Source: an uncultured Anaerofilum sp.
GTDB taxonomy: Bacteria; Bacillota; Clostridia; Oscillospirales; Ruminococcaceae
Reading direction: 5' to 3'
Assembly (NCBI GenBank): GCA_944385935.1
Contig: CALWZC010000004.1
Location: forward strand, 75,426 to 139,425
DNA length: 64,000 bases
The position numbers and the translations under genes are program-made. Below the pieces are notes generated by a model. The model saw only the letters and a program-made list of their open reading frames with translations. It did no database searches and had not been told where the DNA came from. Each line of letters opens with the position of its first letter. Position 1 is the first letter of the stretch. Shown here one piece after another: positions 2,413-13,140 of this stretch.

Positions 2413-3951
2413 ATGACCAGTGAGCACATTATCATGAGTATCACAATTTTGGTTTACTTGGCAGGAATGTTATGGGTGGGGGTACTTTGCTCCAAACAGA
2501 ACAAAGATACCACAGATTTTTATTTAGGAGGAAGAAAGCTAGGGCCTTTGGTAACTGCTATGAGTGCAGAGGCCTCAGATATGAGTTCTTGGCTGCTAAT
2601 GGGATTGCCGGGATTGGCCTACCTAACAGGGGTGGCAGATGCTGGATGGACTGCCATTGGTCTTGCCATTGGAACCTATATCAACTGGTTCCTGGTGGCA
2701 AAACGGTTGCGGGTGTATACGCATATTGCAGGAAATGCCATCACCTTGCCGGATTTTTTCCACAACCGCTATCGGGATAAAAGCCGGTTGTTGATGTTGT
2801 TTTCCAGCTTAATGATAGTGTTGTTTTTTATTCCATACACAGCTTCAGGGTTTGCTGCTTGTGGCAAGTTGTTTTCTTCTCTATTTGGTGTGGACTACAC
2901 AACAGCTATGGTGGTTAGTGCCATAGTAATTGTGGGATACACAGCAACAGGTGGTTTTTTGGCAGCCTCCACCACCGATTTTATTCAGTCCTTAGTGATG
3001 TCGGTAGCCTTAGTTTTGGTGTTGCTGTTTGGAGTACACACAGCAGGGGGATGGTCTGTTGTAATGGAACGTGCAGCACAACTTCCCGGTTATTTGGGAA
3101 TGTTCCAAACCCATCAGCCAGAAACAGGCACCGCTGTGGCATATCCCGCTTTGAGTATGTTTTCTACCATTGCATGGGGACTAGGATATTTTGGAATGCC
3201 TCACATTTTATTGCGGTTTATGGCCATTGAGGACAAAGAAAAACTAACATTGTCCCGCCGCATTGCGACCATCTGGGTGGTAATTTCCTTGGCAGTGGGT
3301 GTGACCATTGGCATTGTGGGCATGGCTATGACAAAAACAGGTGTGTTGCCTGTGTTACAAGGAGCCTCTAGCGAAACAATTTTGGTGGTAATTGCGGATT
3401 TAATGAGTAAAAATGGATGGTTACTGGCGATTTTTGCAGGACTAATTTTAGCTGGAATCCTTGCCTCTACCATGTCCACAGCAGATTCTCAGCTATTGGC
3501 AGCCTCTAGTTCTGTTTCGCAAAACCTTTTGCAAGGAGTATTTCAGGTTCCCATCAACAAAAAAGCAGAAATGCTTTGTGCAAGAGGAACTTTAATTGCT
3601 ATTGCATTGTTGGGAATGTGGATTGCAAAAGACCCCAATAGCTCTATTTTTGGTATCGTTTCTTTTGCGTGGGCTGGTTTTGGTGCTTGTTTTGGCCCTG
3701 TCGTTATTATGGCTCTATTTTGGAAACGTTCCAACCGATGGGGGGCTTTGGCAGGAATGCTGGTGGGAGGAACTATGGTATTTGTGTGGAAATACCTTGT
3801 AATACCTTTGGGAGGTTTTTGGAATATTTATGAGCTTCTGCCGGCCTTTGTAGCTGCTTGCGTGGCTATCGTAGTAGTAAGCCTGTTGACAGCTCCACCG
3901 GAGAAAGAAATCTGCGTGGAATTTGACAAAGTTTGCAAAGAATGCCGCTGA
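2413..3951 (+). CDS. putP: sodium:proline symporter (SSS family)
   Basis: This is a 512-aa polytopic membrane protein. It carries SSS/PutP signatures (FYLGGRKLGP, GLPGLAY, GYLGMFQ…). Confidence 0.85.
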   Translation: MTSEHIIMSITILVYLAGMLWVGVLCSKQNKDTTDFYLGGRKLGPLVTAMSAEASDMSSWLLMGLPGLAYLTGVADAGWTAIGLAIGTYINWFLVAKRLRVYTHIAGNAITLPDFFHNRYRDKSRLLMLFSSLMIVLFFIPYTASGFAACGKLFSSLFGVDYTTAMVVSAIVIVGYTATGGFLAASTTDFIQSLVMSVALVLVLLFGVHTAGGWSVVMERAAQLPGYLGMFQTHQPETGTAVAYPALSMFSTIAWGLGYFGMPHILLRFMAIEDKEKLTLSRRIATIWVVISLAVGVTIGIVGMAMTKTGVLPVLQGASSETILVVIADLMSKNGWLLAIFAGLILAGILASTMSTADSQLLAASSSVSQNLLQGVFQVPINKKAEMLCARGTLIAIALLGMWIAKDPNSSIFGIVSFAWAGFGACFGPVVIMALFWKRSNRWGALAGMLVGGTMVFVWKYLVIPLGGFWNIYELLPAFVAACVAIVVVSLLTAPPEKEICVEFDKVCKECR

Positions 3952-3961
3952 AAAGTGCCAA

Positions 3962-4010
3962 AAAACTCTGGATTTTGAGCTAAATTGACATCAAAGTCCA
4001 GAGTTTTTTG
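3962..4010 (+). terminator. rho-independent terminator after putP
   Basis: Stem AACTCTGGA (3965-3973) pairs with TCCAGAGTT (3996-4004) and is followed by TTTTTT. An A-run lies upstream, so it may act in both directions. Confidence 0.7.
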
Positions 4011-4308
4011 TTGAATTTTTCATGAATAAATTATTAAATTTTACAAAAAATGGTACAAAATATTCCAAAAACACCAAAAATATACATGCAAAATGATATT
4101 TTTCTCACAAATAAAGGGGCAATTTGCGGGTTTGCGTGGAATTTCGTGTATTGAAGGCACAGTGGAATCTATCGTATAATGATGATGTTCCGAAATGCAA
4201 AGGAATAGTAAAAACTACACTACACCATGCAAGGTTGTATTTGTGGAAAAAGATGGATTTGCCTGCATGATGTAGAGATACTGTGTAAGAGTGGGCGGAG
4301 GATTTTTT

Positions 4309-4584
4309 ATGGAAACAAATTGCACTTTGATGTTGGAGAAAAGCTTTTCTCAGTTGGGCAAACTGCAAGACGAAATGCAGTTGCAGTACGCCATGAGTGT
4401 GCAACCCAATGGTGTAGAGTTTTGCGTTAGAAAAATACAAAACCACAACCAACAGTGGGAAAATAGCATGGTGGATGGATTGTCTTCAGAACAAGGAGAA
4501 CTGATTATAAACTTTATGCACCAAAATGCAGTTCCCTTTGAAAACTGGAGAGATATTCTGGAAGATTTGTTGTGCATTGTATAA
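4309..4584 (+). CDS. hypothetical 91-aa protein upstream of the spo0A-like regulator
   Basis: GGAGGA lies 7 nt upstream of ATG 4309. The composition is protein-like, and the overlapping antisense ORFs look spurious. No family was recognised. Confidence 0.35.
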   Translation: METNCTLMLEKSFSQLGKLQDEMQLQYAMSVQPNGVEFCVRKIQNHNQQWENSMVDGLSSEQGELIINFMHQNAVPFENWRDILEDLLCIV

Positions 4585-4725
4585 GGCAGCGGACCGGACT
4601 TTGAAAAAGGGCAACAGTAATATGTTTTGTCAGCAAGGGCTGCCCGTTTGGGTGGCTCTTTTTGCGTAGTAGCTCTTATGGGGCTGCTGGTGTAAAATGC
4701 CCATAGTAAAGGAGAGTAGAGTTTC

Positions 4726-5505
4726 ATGGCACAGGGCATTCGGGTACTTTTGGTGGAAGATAATTTGAATTTGGCAACTTTACAAGCACAAATGCTGAAA
4801 CTTCAACCCGAAAATTATCAGGTGCAGATAGCCTATACAGGGCAACAGGCAAAAGCTGCCTTGCAAGACTCTCTGCCAGATATTATTTTACTGGATTTAA
4901 CATTGCCTGCGCCAGATGGTCTTTCAATTTTGCGTTGGATGCAAACTCAGAAAAAGCCCATGCCACCAGTGATTGTCACTACCAGTTGCACCGAGGAAAG
5001 TGTTCAATGGGAGGCGTTGCGGCTGGGAGCAAAATATTTTATGATTAAGCCTTATCATTTGGATGATTTGTTAGGAAATATCCGAATGTTGCTACGAAAA
5101 CCTGCCAATGGATTTTTTGAATCTGGTATTCATCCAGAGAAAGTAGAATATCTACACCGTGTCAAAATGCTATTAAACCAGATGACCAGCCAAGTGGAAA
5201 GTGAAGGTTATCGCTATGTGTTGATGGCTATGGATAATTATTTTGACCATGGCAGACAGGGAATTTCCATCAAGGCATTAAGTGAAAAGGCAGGGCAACC
5301 TATAAACAACACCGGTGGAAATAATCTTATTGAGGCGGCAATTTATCGTTTGGTCTATCAAATTTGGAGAAAAAACTCTCCTGCATACCAACAGCTTTGC
5401 AGTTTTTGTGGATTGCCCAACGGAAGCCGAATGCCTGTCCGAAGATTTTTGTCTGCACTGGCACAGGTGGCACAAAGAGAACACACTTTGCCAAAGGAGA
5501 GGTAA
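4726..5505 (+). CDS. Spo0A-family response regulator (CheY-like receiver plus Spo0A_C-type DNA-binding domain, divergent)
   Basis: The receiver has the conserved E/D pair (VEDN), the phospho-acceptor Asp (ILLDLTLP), Thr (VTTS) and Lys (IKPY). The C-terminal half aligns to the Spo0A effector domain (…EGYRYVLMAM…, …LIEAAIYRLVYQIWRKN…, …LCSFCGLPN…), but the canonical recognition helix is not conserved. AAAGGAGAG lies 9 nt upstream of ATG 4726. Confidence 0.75.
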   Translation: MAQGIRVLLVEDNLNLATLQAQMLKLQPENYQVQIAYTGQQAKAALQDSLPDIILLDLTLPAPDGLSILRWMQTQKKPMPPVIVTTSCTEESVQWEALRLGAKYFMIKPYHLDDLLGNIRMLLRKPANGFFESGIHPEKVEYLHRVKMLLNQMTSQVESEGYRYVLMAMDNYFDHGRQGISIKALSEKAGQPINNTGGNNLIEAAIYRLVYQIWRKNSPAYQQLCSFCGLPNGSRMPVRRFLSALAQVAQREHTLPKER

Positions 5506-5506
5506 A

Positions 5507-6301
5507 ATGAAGGCTGAGCAAAACAAAGAATTGTACCATCAAATGAAAATGGTGACTGCTGTTGCCTATGACCTGCGAGACCCTGCAACGGTAATTTTAA
5601 TGGCCAAAGATGCTCTGGAAAAGTTGGTCATTGCCCAGCTGCCAGAGAAGGATCAAAAAAAGGCACAGGGGCCTTTGCGATATATCGAAAAAAGTGTAAA
5701 CCGATTGGAAAGAATCAGCATGAATCTGTTGGATATTTCCCGCAGTTCCACAGGAGAACTAAAACCCCACTGGGAGTCGGTTTGTATTTCAGCAGCATGT
5801 AAAGAACTATGTGAAGAAGCCAGAGCTATGCGCCAAGGGAAAAATATTGTTTGCAGTGTTCCAAAACATCCTGTTGTTATACAAACAGATTGCTATTTTT
5901 TTGACCGCATTTTACTAAATCTCCTTAGCAATGCTATGACAGCTTGTCCAGAGGGCAAAATTTGGGTGGAATTGAAGGAATACTCCAATGAAGTGGTTTT
6001 AGTGGTAAAGGACAGCGGGCCGGGCTTGGATGCCCACCGCTTGCAAAGCCCTTTTGCACCAGTCTACCGCACCGAGGATTCTTCCATGCGTTTGGGGCTG
6101 TATATTTCAGATTTGTTGGCAAAGCAAATGTACGCAACCCTTAGCGCAGAAAATATGCCTAAAGGTGGAGCAAGGTTTGTGTTACGTATTCCTGTGGAAG
6201 AGCAAGGTGGACAACAAGCCTTTTGTGCTCCTGTTCGACAGGAACAACAAACCCGAAAGCGATATGTTGAAGCAGAGTTTTCTCTATTTGACCCAATGTA
6301 A
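5507..6301 (+). CDS. cytoplasmic histidine-kinase-like protein whose H-box His codon is TAT (Tyr); possible pseudokinase or phosphatase
   Basis: The start is ATG 5507, 1 nt after the spo0A-like stop (TAA 5503-5505), with AAGGAGAGG as RBS. The DHp motif reads VAYDLRDPATV where HisKA has H-E-L-R-T-P. The N-box (LLNLLSNAMTA), G1 (VKDSGPGLD) and G2 (GLGLYISDLLAK) are present. There are no TM segments. Confidence 0.7.
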   Translation: MKAEQNKELYHQMKMVTAVAYDLRDPATVILMAKDALEKLVIAQLPEKDQKKAQGPLRYIEKSVNRLERISMNLLDISRSSTGELKPHWESVCISAACKELCEEARAMRQGKNIVCSVPKHPVVIQTDCYFFDRILLNLLSNAMTACPEGKIWVELKEYSNEVVLVVKDSGPGLDAHRLQSPFAPVYRTEDSSMRLGLYISDLLAKQMYATLSAENMPKGGARFVLRIPVEEQGGQQAFCAPVRQEQQTRKRYVEAEFSLFDPM

Positions 6302-6339
6302 GGGTAAAGTCAGCAAAATATATCTTTTTCAAAAAGCCT

Positions 6340-6386
6340 TTGCCAGTAGTTTTGGTACAAGGGCTTTTTGCGGTTGTCGTAATTCC
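6340..6386 (+). terminator. possible terminator after the kinase-like gene
   Basis: CAAAAAGCCTTTG pairs with CAAGGGCTTTTTG with one mismatch, and a T-run follows. Confidence 0.4.
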
Positions 6387-6476
6387 TGCATACAGTACCT
6401 TGTAAAACCATCAGGATTGTAGTATACTAAAACAGTATAGTCCAAATACACACAGGAATTTTATGAGGTATACAGA

Positions 6477-7966: not shown

Positions 7967-8374
7967 ATGGATTGCATTGAACTGTTTAAAAAAGCCGCTG
8001 CCGCTATGCAGGCAGACCCTCGCTGTGTAGCTTTGAACACCACACAAAAAGCCTGCGACGAAGATGAAACCTTGCAGGATTTAATTGGTCAGTTTAACCT
8101 TGCTCGTATCGACATGAACGAGGAAGTGGGCAAACCAGAGCGCAACAACCAGCGCATTGCTGAGCTCAACGAGAAGGTTGGCAAAATCTACAACGAAATT
8201 ATGGAAAATCCCAAAATGGTAGCATACAACGAAGCTAAAAAAGAGGTTGAAGGTATGATTAACCATATCAATGCCATTGTAAACACCGCTGTAGAGGGTG
8301 GCGACCCCATGCTGGTGGAGCAACCTGCTGAGGCTTGCACTGGAAGCTGCTCCAGTTGCAGCGGATGCCATTAA
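7967..8374 (+). CDS. ymcA: YlbF/YmcA-family regulator (RicA-like) with C-terminal Cys cluster
   Basis: The coiled-coil architecture is YheA/YmcA/YlbF-like. Its position between miaB and mutS matches B. subtilis ymcB-ymcA-(cotE)-mutS synteny. The protein ends CTGSCSSCSGCH. The RBS is AAAGGAGA. Confidence 0.65.
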   Translation: MDCIELFKKAAAAMQADPRCVALNTTQKACDEDETLQDLIGQFNLARIDMNEEVGKPERNNQRIAELNEKVGKIYNEIMENPKMVAYNEAKKEVEGMINHINAIVNTAVEGGDPMLVEQPAEACTGSCSSCSGCH

Positions 8375-11124: not shown

Positions 11125-11163
11125 GGATAGGTATTCCATAGAACGAGAAAAGGAGGAGATTGC

Positions 11164-13140
11164 ATGGCAGTCATTCATGTATTGGACAAGCATACCGCCG
11201 AATTGATTGCGGCAGGGGAGGTAGTGGAGCGTCCGGCATCGGTAGTAAAGGAATTGCTGGAAAATTCCATTGATGCTGGAGCCAAACAGATAACAGTTTC
11301 CATTGTCCGTGGTGGTGTGGCGCAAATTGAAGTGTCTGACAATGGAAGTGGTATTGAAGTAGAGTATATTGCCACCGCTTTTATTCGCCATGCTACTAGT
11401 AAAATCTCCTGCCAACAAGATTTGGAATCCATTGGAACCTTGGGATTCCGTGGAGAAGCTCTAGCCTCCATTGCCAGCGTTGCCCGAATACAGCTTGTCA
11501 CCTGCACCCCTCAAGATGAGTTTGCTTACTGCTACCGCATAGAGGGAGGCGAGGAAATAGGCATAGAGCCGGCGGCCCGTCCAGTGGGAACAACTATCAC
11601 TGTTTCGGACTTGTTTTACAATACTCCAGCCCGCATGAAGTTTTTGAAAAAGGATTCTAGTGAAGGAACCTTTGTGGCAGAAACCATACAAAGGATTGCT
11701 CTTTCTCATCCAGAAGTAAGCATTGCTTTTATTCGTGAGGGAAAGCAGCAATTTCGTACCCCCGGCACAGGAAAGTTGATGGATACTATTTACACTGTGC
11801 TAGGTAGGGAATTTTCAAAGGAATTGCTGTCTGTAGAAAGCCAGAGTGGAGCCTATCAGGTAAAAGGATGGATTACCCCGCCTCGTTGCTGTCGTGCCAG
11901 TCGAGCAATGCAATATTTCTATATCAATGGGCGTTTTGTAAAAAATAAAACCATGATGGCAGCCCTAGAAACGGCCTACAAGGGAACAGTTATGCAAGGG
12001 AAATTTCCCGGGTGTGTGTTGGAATTGCAGTTGCCCCCGGAATTGGTGGATGTAAATGTGCATCCAGCAAAAATTGAGGTGCGCTTTGCTCATGAACAGG
12101 ATGTTTTTGATGCTGTGTACAAAGGAGTAAAATTGGCTTTGTCGGTGCCACAAGCCTCCCAAAAGCAGTTGGAGTTTTCTACAAAGCCACAGCCAGAGCA
12201 TAAACAAATGCAAATGCCTTCCATTTCTGTGCCACCACAAACCTCTGTAATTCCCAAGCAGGAAACAATCATTTTGGCAAAACAGCAACCTACACTATCA
12301 CAAATTACACCAAACGTTTCTACAAAAGAGGAAATACGGCAAGAAAAATATGTGATTACCACGCGAAATCCAAAAGCATTTTCTGGGCTGTGTTCTTCCA
12401 GTTTGCCCTATACTGTGCACCACAAAGAACCAGACCTTGATGTTATGGTAGAGGAAGATGATTCTTTTCCTGTTGTGGAGCAGCCAGCAGCAGAAACAGA
12501 ATTACCTACCCAAGAGGAAGTAGTACCTTCTCAGATGGAACTGGTTTCCCAAGAGGAGGAGAACAAAGGTTCAGCCCCTTTGCAAATTGTAGGGGAGATG
12601 TTTGGAACCTATATCCTTGCCCAGCGAGGACAGGAAATGTGCTTTATTGATAAACATGCAGCCCATGAGCGTATTTTGTATGAAAAGTTAAAGAATCAGC
12701 AAATGGCAGATGGACAGCTGTTGATGGAGCCTGTAAGCGTGCAGCTTTCCGCAGAACAAAAAAATGCTGTGCTGCAACAGGCGGATTTGCTGGAACAGCA
12801 AGGAATCCAGTTGGAGGACTTTGGTGGGTCTACGGTGTTGGTGCGAACGGTTCCTTTGGATATTTCCCCCAGTGAAGTGGAACCTTTGGTTGAGGAATTG
12901 GCATCCAACTTGGTGCTAAACAATCGCCAAAGCCGAACAGAAAAAGCGGAATGGGTGTTGCATTCCATTGCTTGCCGTGCTGCGGTAAAAGCTGGTGACC
13001 ACAACAGCACAGAAGAACTGTTGCACTTGGCACAACAAATTTTAGAGGGGGAAATTCCCCTATTCTGTCCCCATGGCAGACCGGTGATTTTAAAATTGAC
13101 ACAAAAGGAGCTGGAAAAACAGTTTGGTAGACAAGGATAA
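11164..13140 (+). CDS. mutL: DNA mismatch repair protein MutL
   Basis: The GHKL ATPase N-terminus is present (ELLENSIDAG, DNGSGI). The C-terminal dimerisation domain is present (HAAHERILYE, CPHGRP). Confidence 0.95.
   Translation: MAVIHVLDKHTAELIAAGEVVERPASVVKELLENSIDAGAKQITVSIVRGGVAQIEVSDNGSGIEVEYIATAFIRHATSKISCQQDLESIGTLGFRGEALASIASVARIQLVTCTPQDEFAYCYRIEGGEEIGIEPAARPVGTTITVSDLFYNTPARMKFLKKDSSEGTFVAETIQRIALSHPEVSIAFIREGKQQFRTPGTGKLMDTIYTVLGREFSKELLSVESQSGAYQVKGWITPPRCCRASRAMQYFYINGRFVKNKTMMAALETAYKGTVMQGKFPGCVLELQLPPELVDVNVHPAKIEVRFAHEQDVFDAVYKGVKLALSVPQASQKQLEFSTKPQPEHKQMQMPSISVPPQTSVIPKQETIILAKQQPTLSQITPNVSTKEEIRQEKYVITTRNPKAFSGLCSSSLPYTVHHKEPDLDVMVEEDDSFPVVEQPAAETELPTQEEVVPSQMELVSQEEENKGSAPLQIVGEMFGTYILAQRGQEMCFIDKHAAHERILYEKLKNQQMADGQLLMEPVSVQLSAEQKNAVLQQADLLEQQGIQLEDFGGSTVLVRTVPLDISPSEVEPLVEELASNLVLNNRQSRTEKAEWVLHSIACRAAVKAGDHNSTEELLHLAQQILEGEIPLFCPHGRPVILKLTQKELEKQFGRQG

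Follow-up and report, generated by a model that had tools for sequence, protein, structure and literature searches.

A histidine-kinase-like protein without sensor or phospho-accepting histidine, encoded directly 3′ of a Spo0A-like regulator in relatives of Anaerofilum

What does a histidine-kinase-like protein do beside a response regulator when it has no histidine at the position on which such kinases are phosphorylated? The question is raised by a gene pair in a 64-kb stretch of DNA from an uncultured Anaerofilum species (referred to here, at its full length, as the window), in which the gene of a Spo0A-like response regulator is followed directly by that of a 264-amino-acid (aa) protein with the core of a histidine kinase and a tyrosine at the phospho-accepting site. 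In one survey Spo0A was encoded in 32 of 42 non-spore-forming Clostridia; Faecalibacterium expresses several 'Spo0A homologues', and the kinases of clostridial Spo0A are usually described as 'orphans', with genes at other places in the genome. Comparison of the window with related loci showed that the histidine was lost long ago, that the site accepts Tyr, Gly, Cys, Lys, Asn, Gln and Glu and flips among close relatives, and that the remainder of the protein is under purifying selection and still coupled to the regulator and to a third protein of about 90 aa. With the acceptor long absent, unrelated residues tolerated in its place and selection acting on the rest, phosphate donation from this position can be excluded as the role conserved in the short form. 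By analogy with DivL and PsmA, we favour the reading that it is a pseudo-histidine kinase acting by docking on the regulator, with a probability of roughly 55%. The features on which the comparison is based are as follows.

4726-5505, + strand: regulator open reading frame (ORF), stop codon TAA at 5503-5505; response regulator with an intact receiver and a six-helix C-terminal domain, a highly diverged Spo0A_C (Pfam, PDB and AlphaFold2)
5492-5500, + strand: Shine-Dalgarno sequence of the kinase-like gene, AAGGAGAGG, within the 3′ end of the regulator gene, read from the sequence
5507-6301, + strand: pseudo-histidine kinase gene without sensor and without the His, ATG at 5507, 264 aa
5567-5569, + strand: Tyr21 codon, TAT, at the position of the phospho-accepting His, within V-A-Y-D-L-R-D-P

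The preliminary description of this DNA had the kinase-like gene translationally coupled to the regulator, and the reading frames bear this out, with a gap of 1 nt between the regulator stop and the kinase-like ATG and a Shine-Dalgarno sequence inside the end of the regulator gene. No test against chance is possible for a single residue, and conservation was taken as the relevant test of the tyrosine. In an alignment with 86 ordinary histidine kinases (HKs), the Tyr21 column holds His in 67 and Pro in the other 19, confirming that the TAT codon stands where the phospho-accepting His is expected. A search of 5.8 billion proteins returned a tight family of about 264 aa, 46-100% identical, beyond which scores dropped sharply to generic kinases; a precomputed HisKA match was found in none of its members. 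An exhaustive hidden Markov model search of 1.84 billion representatives likewise returned only three 50%-identity representatives of the family, followed by generic HKs, and one of these, newly found, is 43% identical to the window protein and carries Tyr. In the family alignment Tyr is shared by the window protein and relatives at 75, 61 and 54% identity, one relative has Gly and one Cys, and His is present in one clade at 46-51% identity (AAAAHDLREL); a scan of a genome collection added a Lys variant in an uncultured Anaerofilum. Relatives come from Anaerofilum and other Oscillospirales, the closest named ones being Anaerofilum metagenome-assembled genomes (MAGs), at ≤61% identity.

The residue is fixed within clusters and differs between them. 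Tyr is found in all 14 full-length members of the window's own 90% cluster, which come from dozens of independent contigs; for the three nearest 90% clusters, the tally of full-length sequences with Tyr is 14/14, 2/2 and 3/3. The 90% cluster of Candidatus Anaerofilum excrementigallinarum has Cys (15/15 members), and four 90% clusters that include Anaerofilum sp. An201 have His (38/38 readable members). The codons at the site are TAT (four loci), TGC, AAG and CAC. Across the core family, position 21 takes five residue types (Y/G/C/K/H) with an entropy of 1.95 bits, as against 0-0.9 bits across its neighbours in positions 18-24; R24, V29 and L31 are invariant and the flanking A-x-DLRD is kept. 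Five of the nine core lineages have Tyr at the site, among them every one of the three in the window clade. When all 19 short sensor-less lineages are counted, the residue is Tyr in 5, Gly in 4, His in 3, Gln in 2, Glu in 2 and Cys, Lys and Asn in 1 each, where one of the two Glu lineages is alignment-dependent and the H-box alignment of the most divergent group (represented by locus L112) is uncertain. Thus 16/19 short lineages are without the His, which is present in 3/19 of them and in 3/3 long forms. Four residues after the site (H+4), the window protein has Asp (D22-L-R-D25) and the core family D, E or S; generic HKs show T, Q, A, N or S there, and the long relatives T (SHEFKTP).

Two ways in which phosphorylation might have been kept were considered and rejected. 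A conserved substitute His is not present, since H11 (H10 in the closest relative, locus L082) is confined to the window clade and shifts in register, and there is no other conserved His. Tyr as a conserved alternative phospho-acceptor was rejected as a mechanism of the family because sister lineages have Gly, Cys or Lys at the site with all else kept.

Apart from this residue, the protein was found to be a histidine-kinase core, soluble and kinase-like as the preliminary description had it. Pfam HATPase_c matches at 1.6e-17; HisKA matches at 1.9e-4 (21.9 bits, under the 26.9-bit gathering threshold), and HATPase_c_2 is weak (E=0.042). The AlphaFold2 model, built from 97 sequences with a mean predicted local distance difference test (pLDDT) score of 88.7, consists of a dimerisation and histidine-phosphotransfer (DHp) hairpin and an alpha/beta catalytic and ATP-binding (CA) domain, with neither a sensor nor a membrane segment, and the chain starts already in DHp helix 1. 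Foldseek searches against the PDB gave ZraS, YycG, HK853, CpxA and DivL as best matches, at E of about 1e-13. The parts of the protein lie as follows.

5510-5749, + strand: DHp helical hairpin, residues 2-81 (AlphaFold2 helices 2-40 and 47-81; weak HisKA match over residues 14-82)
5774-6193, + strand: CA (HATPase_c) domain, residues 90-229 (AlphaFold2 strands and helices 90-229; Pfam HATPase_c over residues 132-231)
5906-5944, + strand: N box, in the CA domain
6011-6025, + strand: G1 box, in the CA domain
6083-6100, + strand: degenerate G2 box, SMRLGL, in the CA domain
6236-6280, + strand: extra C-terminal helix, residues 244-258 (AlphaFold2), with the signature R..[IV].AEFS

The ATP-binding boxes had been described as intact, which holds for the N-box asparagines and the G1 box but not for the whole set. 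N138, N142 and the G1 residues D169-x-G171-x-G173 are unchanged, and are invariant both in the family and in the 86 generic HKs. By comparison with the same 86 kinases, the Lys/Arg of the N box (position 145) is replaced by Thr in the window protein, and the G2 box, G-x-G-L-G-L in 86/86, reads S193-M-R195-L-G-L; position 195 is R, K or Q throughout the core family, whereas G193 and G195 are invariant in the generic kinases. Measured against a functional HisKA kinase, the protein therefore has the DHp and CA domains, the N-box asparagines and G1, and is without the phospho-His and a regular G2 box. Nor does it resemble a GHKL anti-sigma serine kinase of the SpoIIAB/RsbW type, as a full DHp is present, the HATPase_c_2 match is weak and the small partner protein has no STAS match.

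The regulator keeps the residues for phosphorylation. Its receiver is matched by Pfam Response_reg at 7.6e-20, and the best PDB matches of the receiver are Spo0A receivers (for example 1dz3, at 1.4e-19). The orthologues show no change at D57 or K108, and no complete sequence lacks the E11-D12 pair. The description of a His-less HK paralogue coupled to a regulator is supported, and the receiver of that regulator is intact; in the lineage of the window E11-D12, D57, T/S85-86 and K108 are all retained. The C-terminal domain is much further diverged. The AlphaFold2 model (pLDDT 87.9) predicts it as six helices, and Spo0A_C spans the whole Pfam model at E=0.11 with the full protein and 0.019 with the isolated domain; the TIGR02875 match is confined to the receiver and, for the Spo0A_C fold, a PDB profile search gave no Spo0A match and an hhalign comparison with 1lq1 was not significant (E=0.097). 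Regulators of related modules all match Pfam Spo0A_C (10/10, E from 7.7e-21 to 0.08, five above the gathering score), in agreement with the earlier designation of the regulator as Spo0A-like. Because of the Spo0A-receiver matches in the PDB, the retained D57, K108 and E11-D12, and the six-helix predicted C-terminal domain, the best reading places the window regulator, highly diverged as it is, in the Spo0A-family lineage.

The kinase-like gene has been maintained by selection. Ratios of non-synonymous to synonymous substitution rates (dN/dS, ω) between His-less orthologues range from 0.07 to 0.26, which shows that the gene is not decaying. For loci L083 (Tyr) and L002 (Cys), at an unsaturated dS of 0.56, ω is 0.13 (DHp 0.11, CA 0.15), and the other two genes of the module, for the regulator and the small protein, gave 0.13-0.22. 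At 77% identity, L087 (Gln) and L099 (His) have an ω of 0.05. Neighbour-joining placed the core family as monophyletic with 91-100% bootstrap support, and placed lineages with different residues at the site as sisters: L083 (Y) and L002 (C) at 100%, joined by P0005 (G) at 100%, L099 (H) and L087 (Q) at 100%, and L097 (H) and L088 (N) at 92%. Tyr-first and His-first ancestral states of the core family are equally parsimonious, with 5 steps each, and adding the distant modules did not decide between them, since deep neighbour-joining nodes have 16-49% support.

The pair is part of a module of three genes. In all related loci the kinase-like gene lies directly 3′ of the regulator, with a spacing between an overlap of ≤40 nt and a gap of ≤4 nt, and the gene of the ~90-aa protein lies 5′ of the regulator.

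4309-4584, + strand: first gene of the module, encoding an orphan protein of ~90 aa, conserved 5′ of the regulator in related loci

The ~90-aa protein has no Pfam or NCBIfam match and no recognisable STAS or Hpt domain; its invariant residues are F13, S14, L16, G17, L19, Q20, Y27, N73 and W80, and it could be an input or a partner of the kinase or kinase-like protein. The module occupies two neighbourhoods: the window and its closest relative have it at miaB-ylbF-mutS-mutL, the other loci at pyrH-frr-uppS-cdsA-dxr-rseP, which indicates that the three genes move together. Wherever a related locus reaches far enough downstream, the kinase-like gene has an uninterrupted reading frame.

A profile search with the small protein identified more distant copies of the module, with a regulator gene and a kinase or kinase-like gene wherever the downstream sequence suffices. 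Three of these loci encode long, canonical kinases: Ligaoa zhengdingensis NSJ-31 (L058), a Subdoligranulum MAG (L029) and an uncultured Clostridia MAG (L004). Their regulators match Pfam Spo0A_C at 7.7e-21, 2.8e-14 and 1.7e-12, and those of L058 and L029 have full-length TIGR02875 matches of 195 and 149 bits; as these scores are under the equivalog cut-off of 200, the two regulators may be Spo0A paralogues. The long kinases have about 440 to 700 aa with an LSHEFKTP H-box and a GxGLGL G2 box, and that of L058 comprises GAF and PAS sensors, HisKA and HATPase_c. In L058 (3672-6535) and L029 (4409-6564) the Spo0A-family regulator gene was observed directly 5′ of the gene of a GAF/PAS kinase with a canonical H-box. 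These two kinases agree with the window protein at about 26-31% of residues, the L029 module sits 5′ of pyrH-frr as the short forms do, and a tail motif, R..[IV].[AI]E[FL]S, recurs in short forms that lack the His and in the long kinases of L058, L029 and L004. Given the shared synteny, small protein and C-terminal tail motif, the best explanation is that the short pseudokinase descends from a sensor kinase encoded directly 3′ of a Spo0A-family regulator.

Other branches of the module have lost the phospho-accepting residue of the regulator as well. The phospho-Asp is replaced by Asn in L088, Glu in L097 and Ser in L100/L101, and the kinase-like gene is kept in these loci. A group of about 20 contigs (L105-L126, about 59% GC, many labelled human-gut metagenome) encodes a regulator with Ser at the phospho-Asp and Glu at the conserved Lys; an example is L112, with the pseudo-receiver regulator at 3799-4524 and the kinase-like gene at 4541-5332. 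In this group the kinase-like proteins are 78% identical where the regulators are 99% identical. In L097 the regulator (319-1074) has Glu at the phospho-Asp position, and its kinase-like partner retains the His, with Gln at H+1. Glu at the phospho-Asp position is often phosphomimetic.

On the docking reading, an Anaerofilum-like lineage that led to the window would have lost the N-terminal GAF/PAS sensor region and the phospho-His of the ancestral kinase. Still left would be the DHp hairpin for dimerisation and docking, a CA domain in which the N and G1 boxes are present and the G2 lid is altered, and a C-terminal helix specific to the family. Such a protein would not autophosphorylate at the canonical site, and so would not be a phosphodonor for the regulator; it would have been retained for docking on the receiver through the conserved DHp surface, and the contact between the two proteins would control or read the state of the regulator, maybe in a nucleotide-dependent manner, as for DivL with DivK~P. 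Because all of its phospho-chemistry residues are kept in the lineage of the window, the regulator presumably receives its phosphate from another source, which could be acetyl phosphate or a kinase encoded at an unlinked site. The pseudokinase may have some phosphatase activity left, but this would not be the conserved function of the family.

Several observations weigh against this reading. The three lineages of the window clade keep Tyr, always encoded by TAT, despite saturated dS values of 1.2-2.2, which implies that the residue is not free to vary there and may have a specific role. In the human-gut group L105-L126 the kinase-like gene is less constrained, with an ω of about 0.42 as against 0.03-0.11 for the regulator, making retention of the gene in that group a weaker argument. 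The acidic residues D22 (H+1) and D25 (H+4) are conserved and could support a non-canonical hydrolytic mechanism, and the fully canonical receiver of the window lineage fits a phosphatase well. Finally, the proposed link between the long and short forms comes from synteny, the small protein and the tail motif; the neighbour-joining tree of the kinase core, with supports of 16-49%, does not settle it.

The main rival, put forward in the preliminary description, is a dedicated phosphatase, in which the His-less DHp would dock on the phosphorylated regulator and dephosphorylate it with a nucleotide cofactor, the phosphate having come from a separate kinase or acetyl phosphate. The intact receiver allows it, with E11-D12, D57, T/S85-86 and K108 all kept by the regulator; the DHp alpha-1 docking region and the N and G1 boxes of the CA domain are conserved under purifying selection, acidic residues are conserved at H+1 and H+4, and HisKA kinases can stay phosphatases without the His (substitutions in EnvZ, LuxN and C. 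difficile PtpB-H664A, according to a preprint). However, the T/N at H+4 that defines the phosphatase motif is Asp here and Asp, Glu or Ser in the core family, and is Thr in the long relatives; Gly, Lys and Glu are all tolerated beside the would-be active site, and the kinase-like gene is kept where the regulator has Asn, Ser or Glu in place of the phospho-Asp, so that the proposal is weakened and we consider it possible but doubtful. Kinase activity by another route, which could be autophosphorylation of Tyr21, trans-phosphorylation of a canonical HK in a heterodimer, or SpoIIAB/RsbW-like Ser/Thr phosphorylation, for example of the invariant S14 of the 90-aa protein, is improbable. The CA domain does keep N138, N142, D169, G171 and G173 for binding of Mg and adenine (ω 0.15), in the window clade the Tyr has survived deep divergence, the always co-encoded small protein has an invariant Ser and Tyr, and there is the weak HATPase_c_2 match at E=0.042. 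Against this, Tyr is replaced by Gly, Cys or Lys in sisters that keep all else, no member of the core family has either the G2 lid glycines or the N-box Lys that catalysis normally requires, a second HK was not found within the 64-kb window, and the small protein shows no recognisable STAS or Hpt match.

Decay offers a further explanation, in which a sporulation kinase became a functionless relic after the loss of sporulation. Loss of the sensor and the His, degeneration of the G2 box, the highly diverged Spo0A_C of the partner and the relaxed constraint in the human-gut group (ω about 0.42) speak for it, but it is made very unlikely by reading frames that are intact in all related loci extending far enough downstream, ω values of 0.05-0.26 in the core family and the L087/L099 pair, and a gene order and coupling kept across two chromosomal contexts. 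A strain-specific CAT-to-TAT mutation or a sequencing error, to which the His and Tyr codons would lend themselves in being one transition apart, was also raised in the preliminary description; it is refuted because Tyr is shared by all 14 full-length sequences of the 90% cluster, which stem from independent assemblies, and by orthologues with 75, 61, 54 and 43% identity, and a pattern of orthologues that all have His with Tyr in one strain was not seen in the orthologue alignment.

A broader extension of the docking reading can be put forward tentatively. In a group of gut Oscillospirales, among them relatives of Anaerofilum and a common human-gut lineage, the whole spo0A-kinase operon might have been turned into a module independent of His-to-Asp phosphotransfer, in which the pseudokinase and the 90-aa protein would form a nucleotide-dependent partner-switch on a Spo0A-like factor, which could include phosphorylation of S14. 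Lineages appear to be frozen at different stages, with the His lost and the Asp kept in the window, both lost in L088, L100 and L105-L126, and a phosphomimetic Glu in L097.

The surroundings of the module in the window contain candidate signals at either end.

4151-4180, + strand: promoter-like site, TTGAAG-18-TATAAT, 5′ of the three-gene module (consensus scan, 10/12 matches; a pattern match alone)
6330-6370, + strand: terminator-like hairpin with U-run at the operon end (RNA fold of 6299-6400, -26.9 kcal/mol, z = -2.66)

Between the small gene and the regulator (4585-4725) there is also a GC-rich hairpin followed by a U-run (GGGCUGCCC...GGGUGGCUCUUUUU), which may be an internal attenuator or terminator. 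In the closest relative, L082, this hairpin region is replaced by an additional ORF of 152 aa. Downstream of the module, an ORF of 135 aa with a Cys-rich C-terminus lies between miaB and mutS (7967-8374, + strand), and its counterpart in L082 is annotated as Com_YlbF (PF06133). Com_YlbF is the family of B. subtilis YlbF/YmcA, which influence the Spo0A phosphorelay. The YlbF-like ORF probably lies there as part of the conserved miaB-mutS synteny and not through any connection with the module. No other kinase or receiver genes were found in the 64-kb window; the sole other GHKL match in it is the ORF at 11131-13137, which is probably mutL, by synteny with L082. No Rfam family reached its gathering score across the window. 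The G+C content of the window is 43.8%, and that of loci with related modules ranges from 38% to 63%.

In one Oscillospirales lineage, then, a kinase is encoded directly 3′ of a Spo0A-family gene, and in most descendants that kinase would now be a sensor-less pseudokinase, yet retained by selection. The small soluble pair and its 90-aa third component offer a test case for Spo0A-type control without a cognate phosphodonor. The nearest canonical systems are the kinases of L058 and L029, which belong to the same module and share the C-terminal tail motif (and, for L029, the pyrH-frr neighbourhood), and differ from the window protein in their 440-700 aa, their GAF/PAS sensors and their LSHEFKTP and GxGLGL boxes. 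The C. difficile kinases PtpA, PtpB and PtpC are of the HisKA type and act directly on Spo0A without a phosphorelay, some of them negatively, and PtpB-H664A still complements. They are large proteins with sensor domains that keep the His and the E/DxxT/N motif, and are 'orphans' encoded away from spo0A, whereas the window protein and its long relatives are encoded directly 3′ of the regulator and the window protein is without sensor, His and T/N. E/D-x-x-T/N after the His is the HisKA phosphatase motif, in which the T/N is required (preprint; PMC12963549).

Pseudo-histidine kinases are known, and a sensor-less derivative of a Spo0A-linked kinase with a series of His- and Asp-site variants and a third, orphan component was not found in the literature searched. 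DivL of Caulobacter crescentus has Tyr550 at the His site, shows neither kinase nor phosphatase activity, and uses the normal docking surface to bind DivK~P (PMC4211667); its Tyr is common but not universal, with Ala in Magnetospirillum (PMC4211667). The window protein is like DivL in having a HisKA-type DHp and CA core with Tyr in place of the phospho-His, and DivL (4q20) is matched in Foldseek at E 3e-13. DivL is a large, membrane-anchored, multi-PAS protein of Alphaproteobacteria whose partner is the single-domain DivK and whose output passes through its PAS domains to CckA; the window protein, which is not a member of the DivL family, is a 264-aa protein of Firmicutes in which a short C-terminal helix is the only extra part. 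Its gene is co-transcribed with those of a 90-aa orphan protein and a Spo0A-family regulator that binds DNA, and it arose independently. PsmA of Streptomyces has a variable E/D/Q at the His site followed by a conserved H-box, is without D/ExxT/N, and does not autophosphorylate as a purified domain (PMC12963549). The window family resembles it in a variable residue followed by a conserved DLRD without D/ExxT/N, which is a shared signature and not membership, as PsmA, a large HK-like hybrid containing PAS and REC domains, binds DivIVA at the tips of hyphae, has no transcription-factor partner and is of unrelated origin. With the module of the window, the few pseudo-histidine kinases known from bacteria (DivL, PsmA) would be joined by one that evolved independently and that comes with natural intermediates at both the His and the Asp site.

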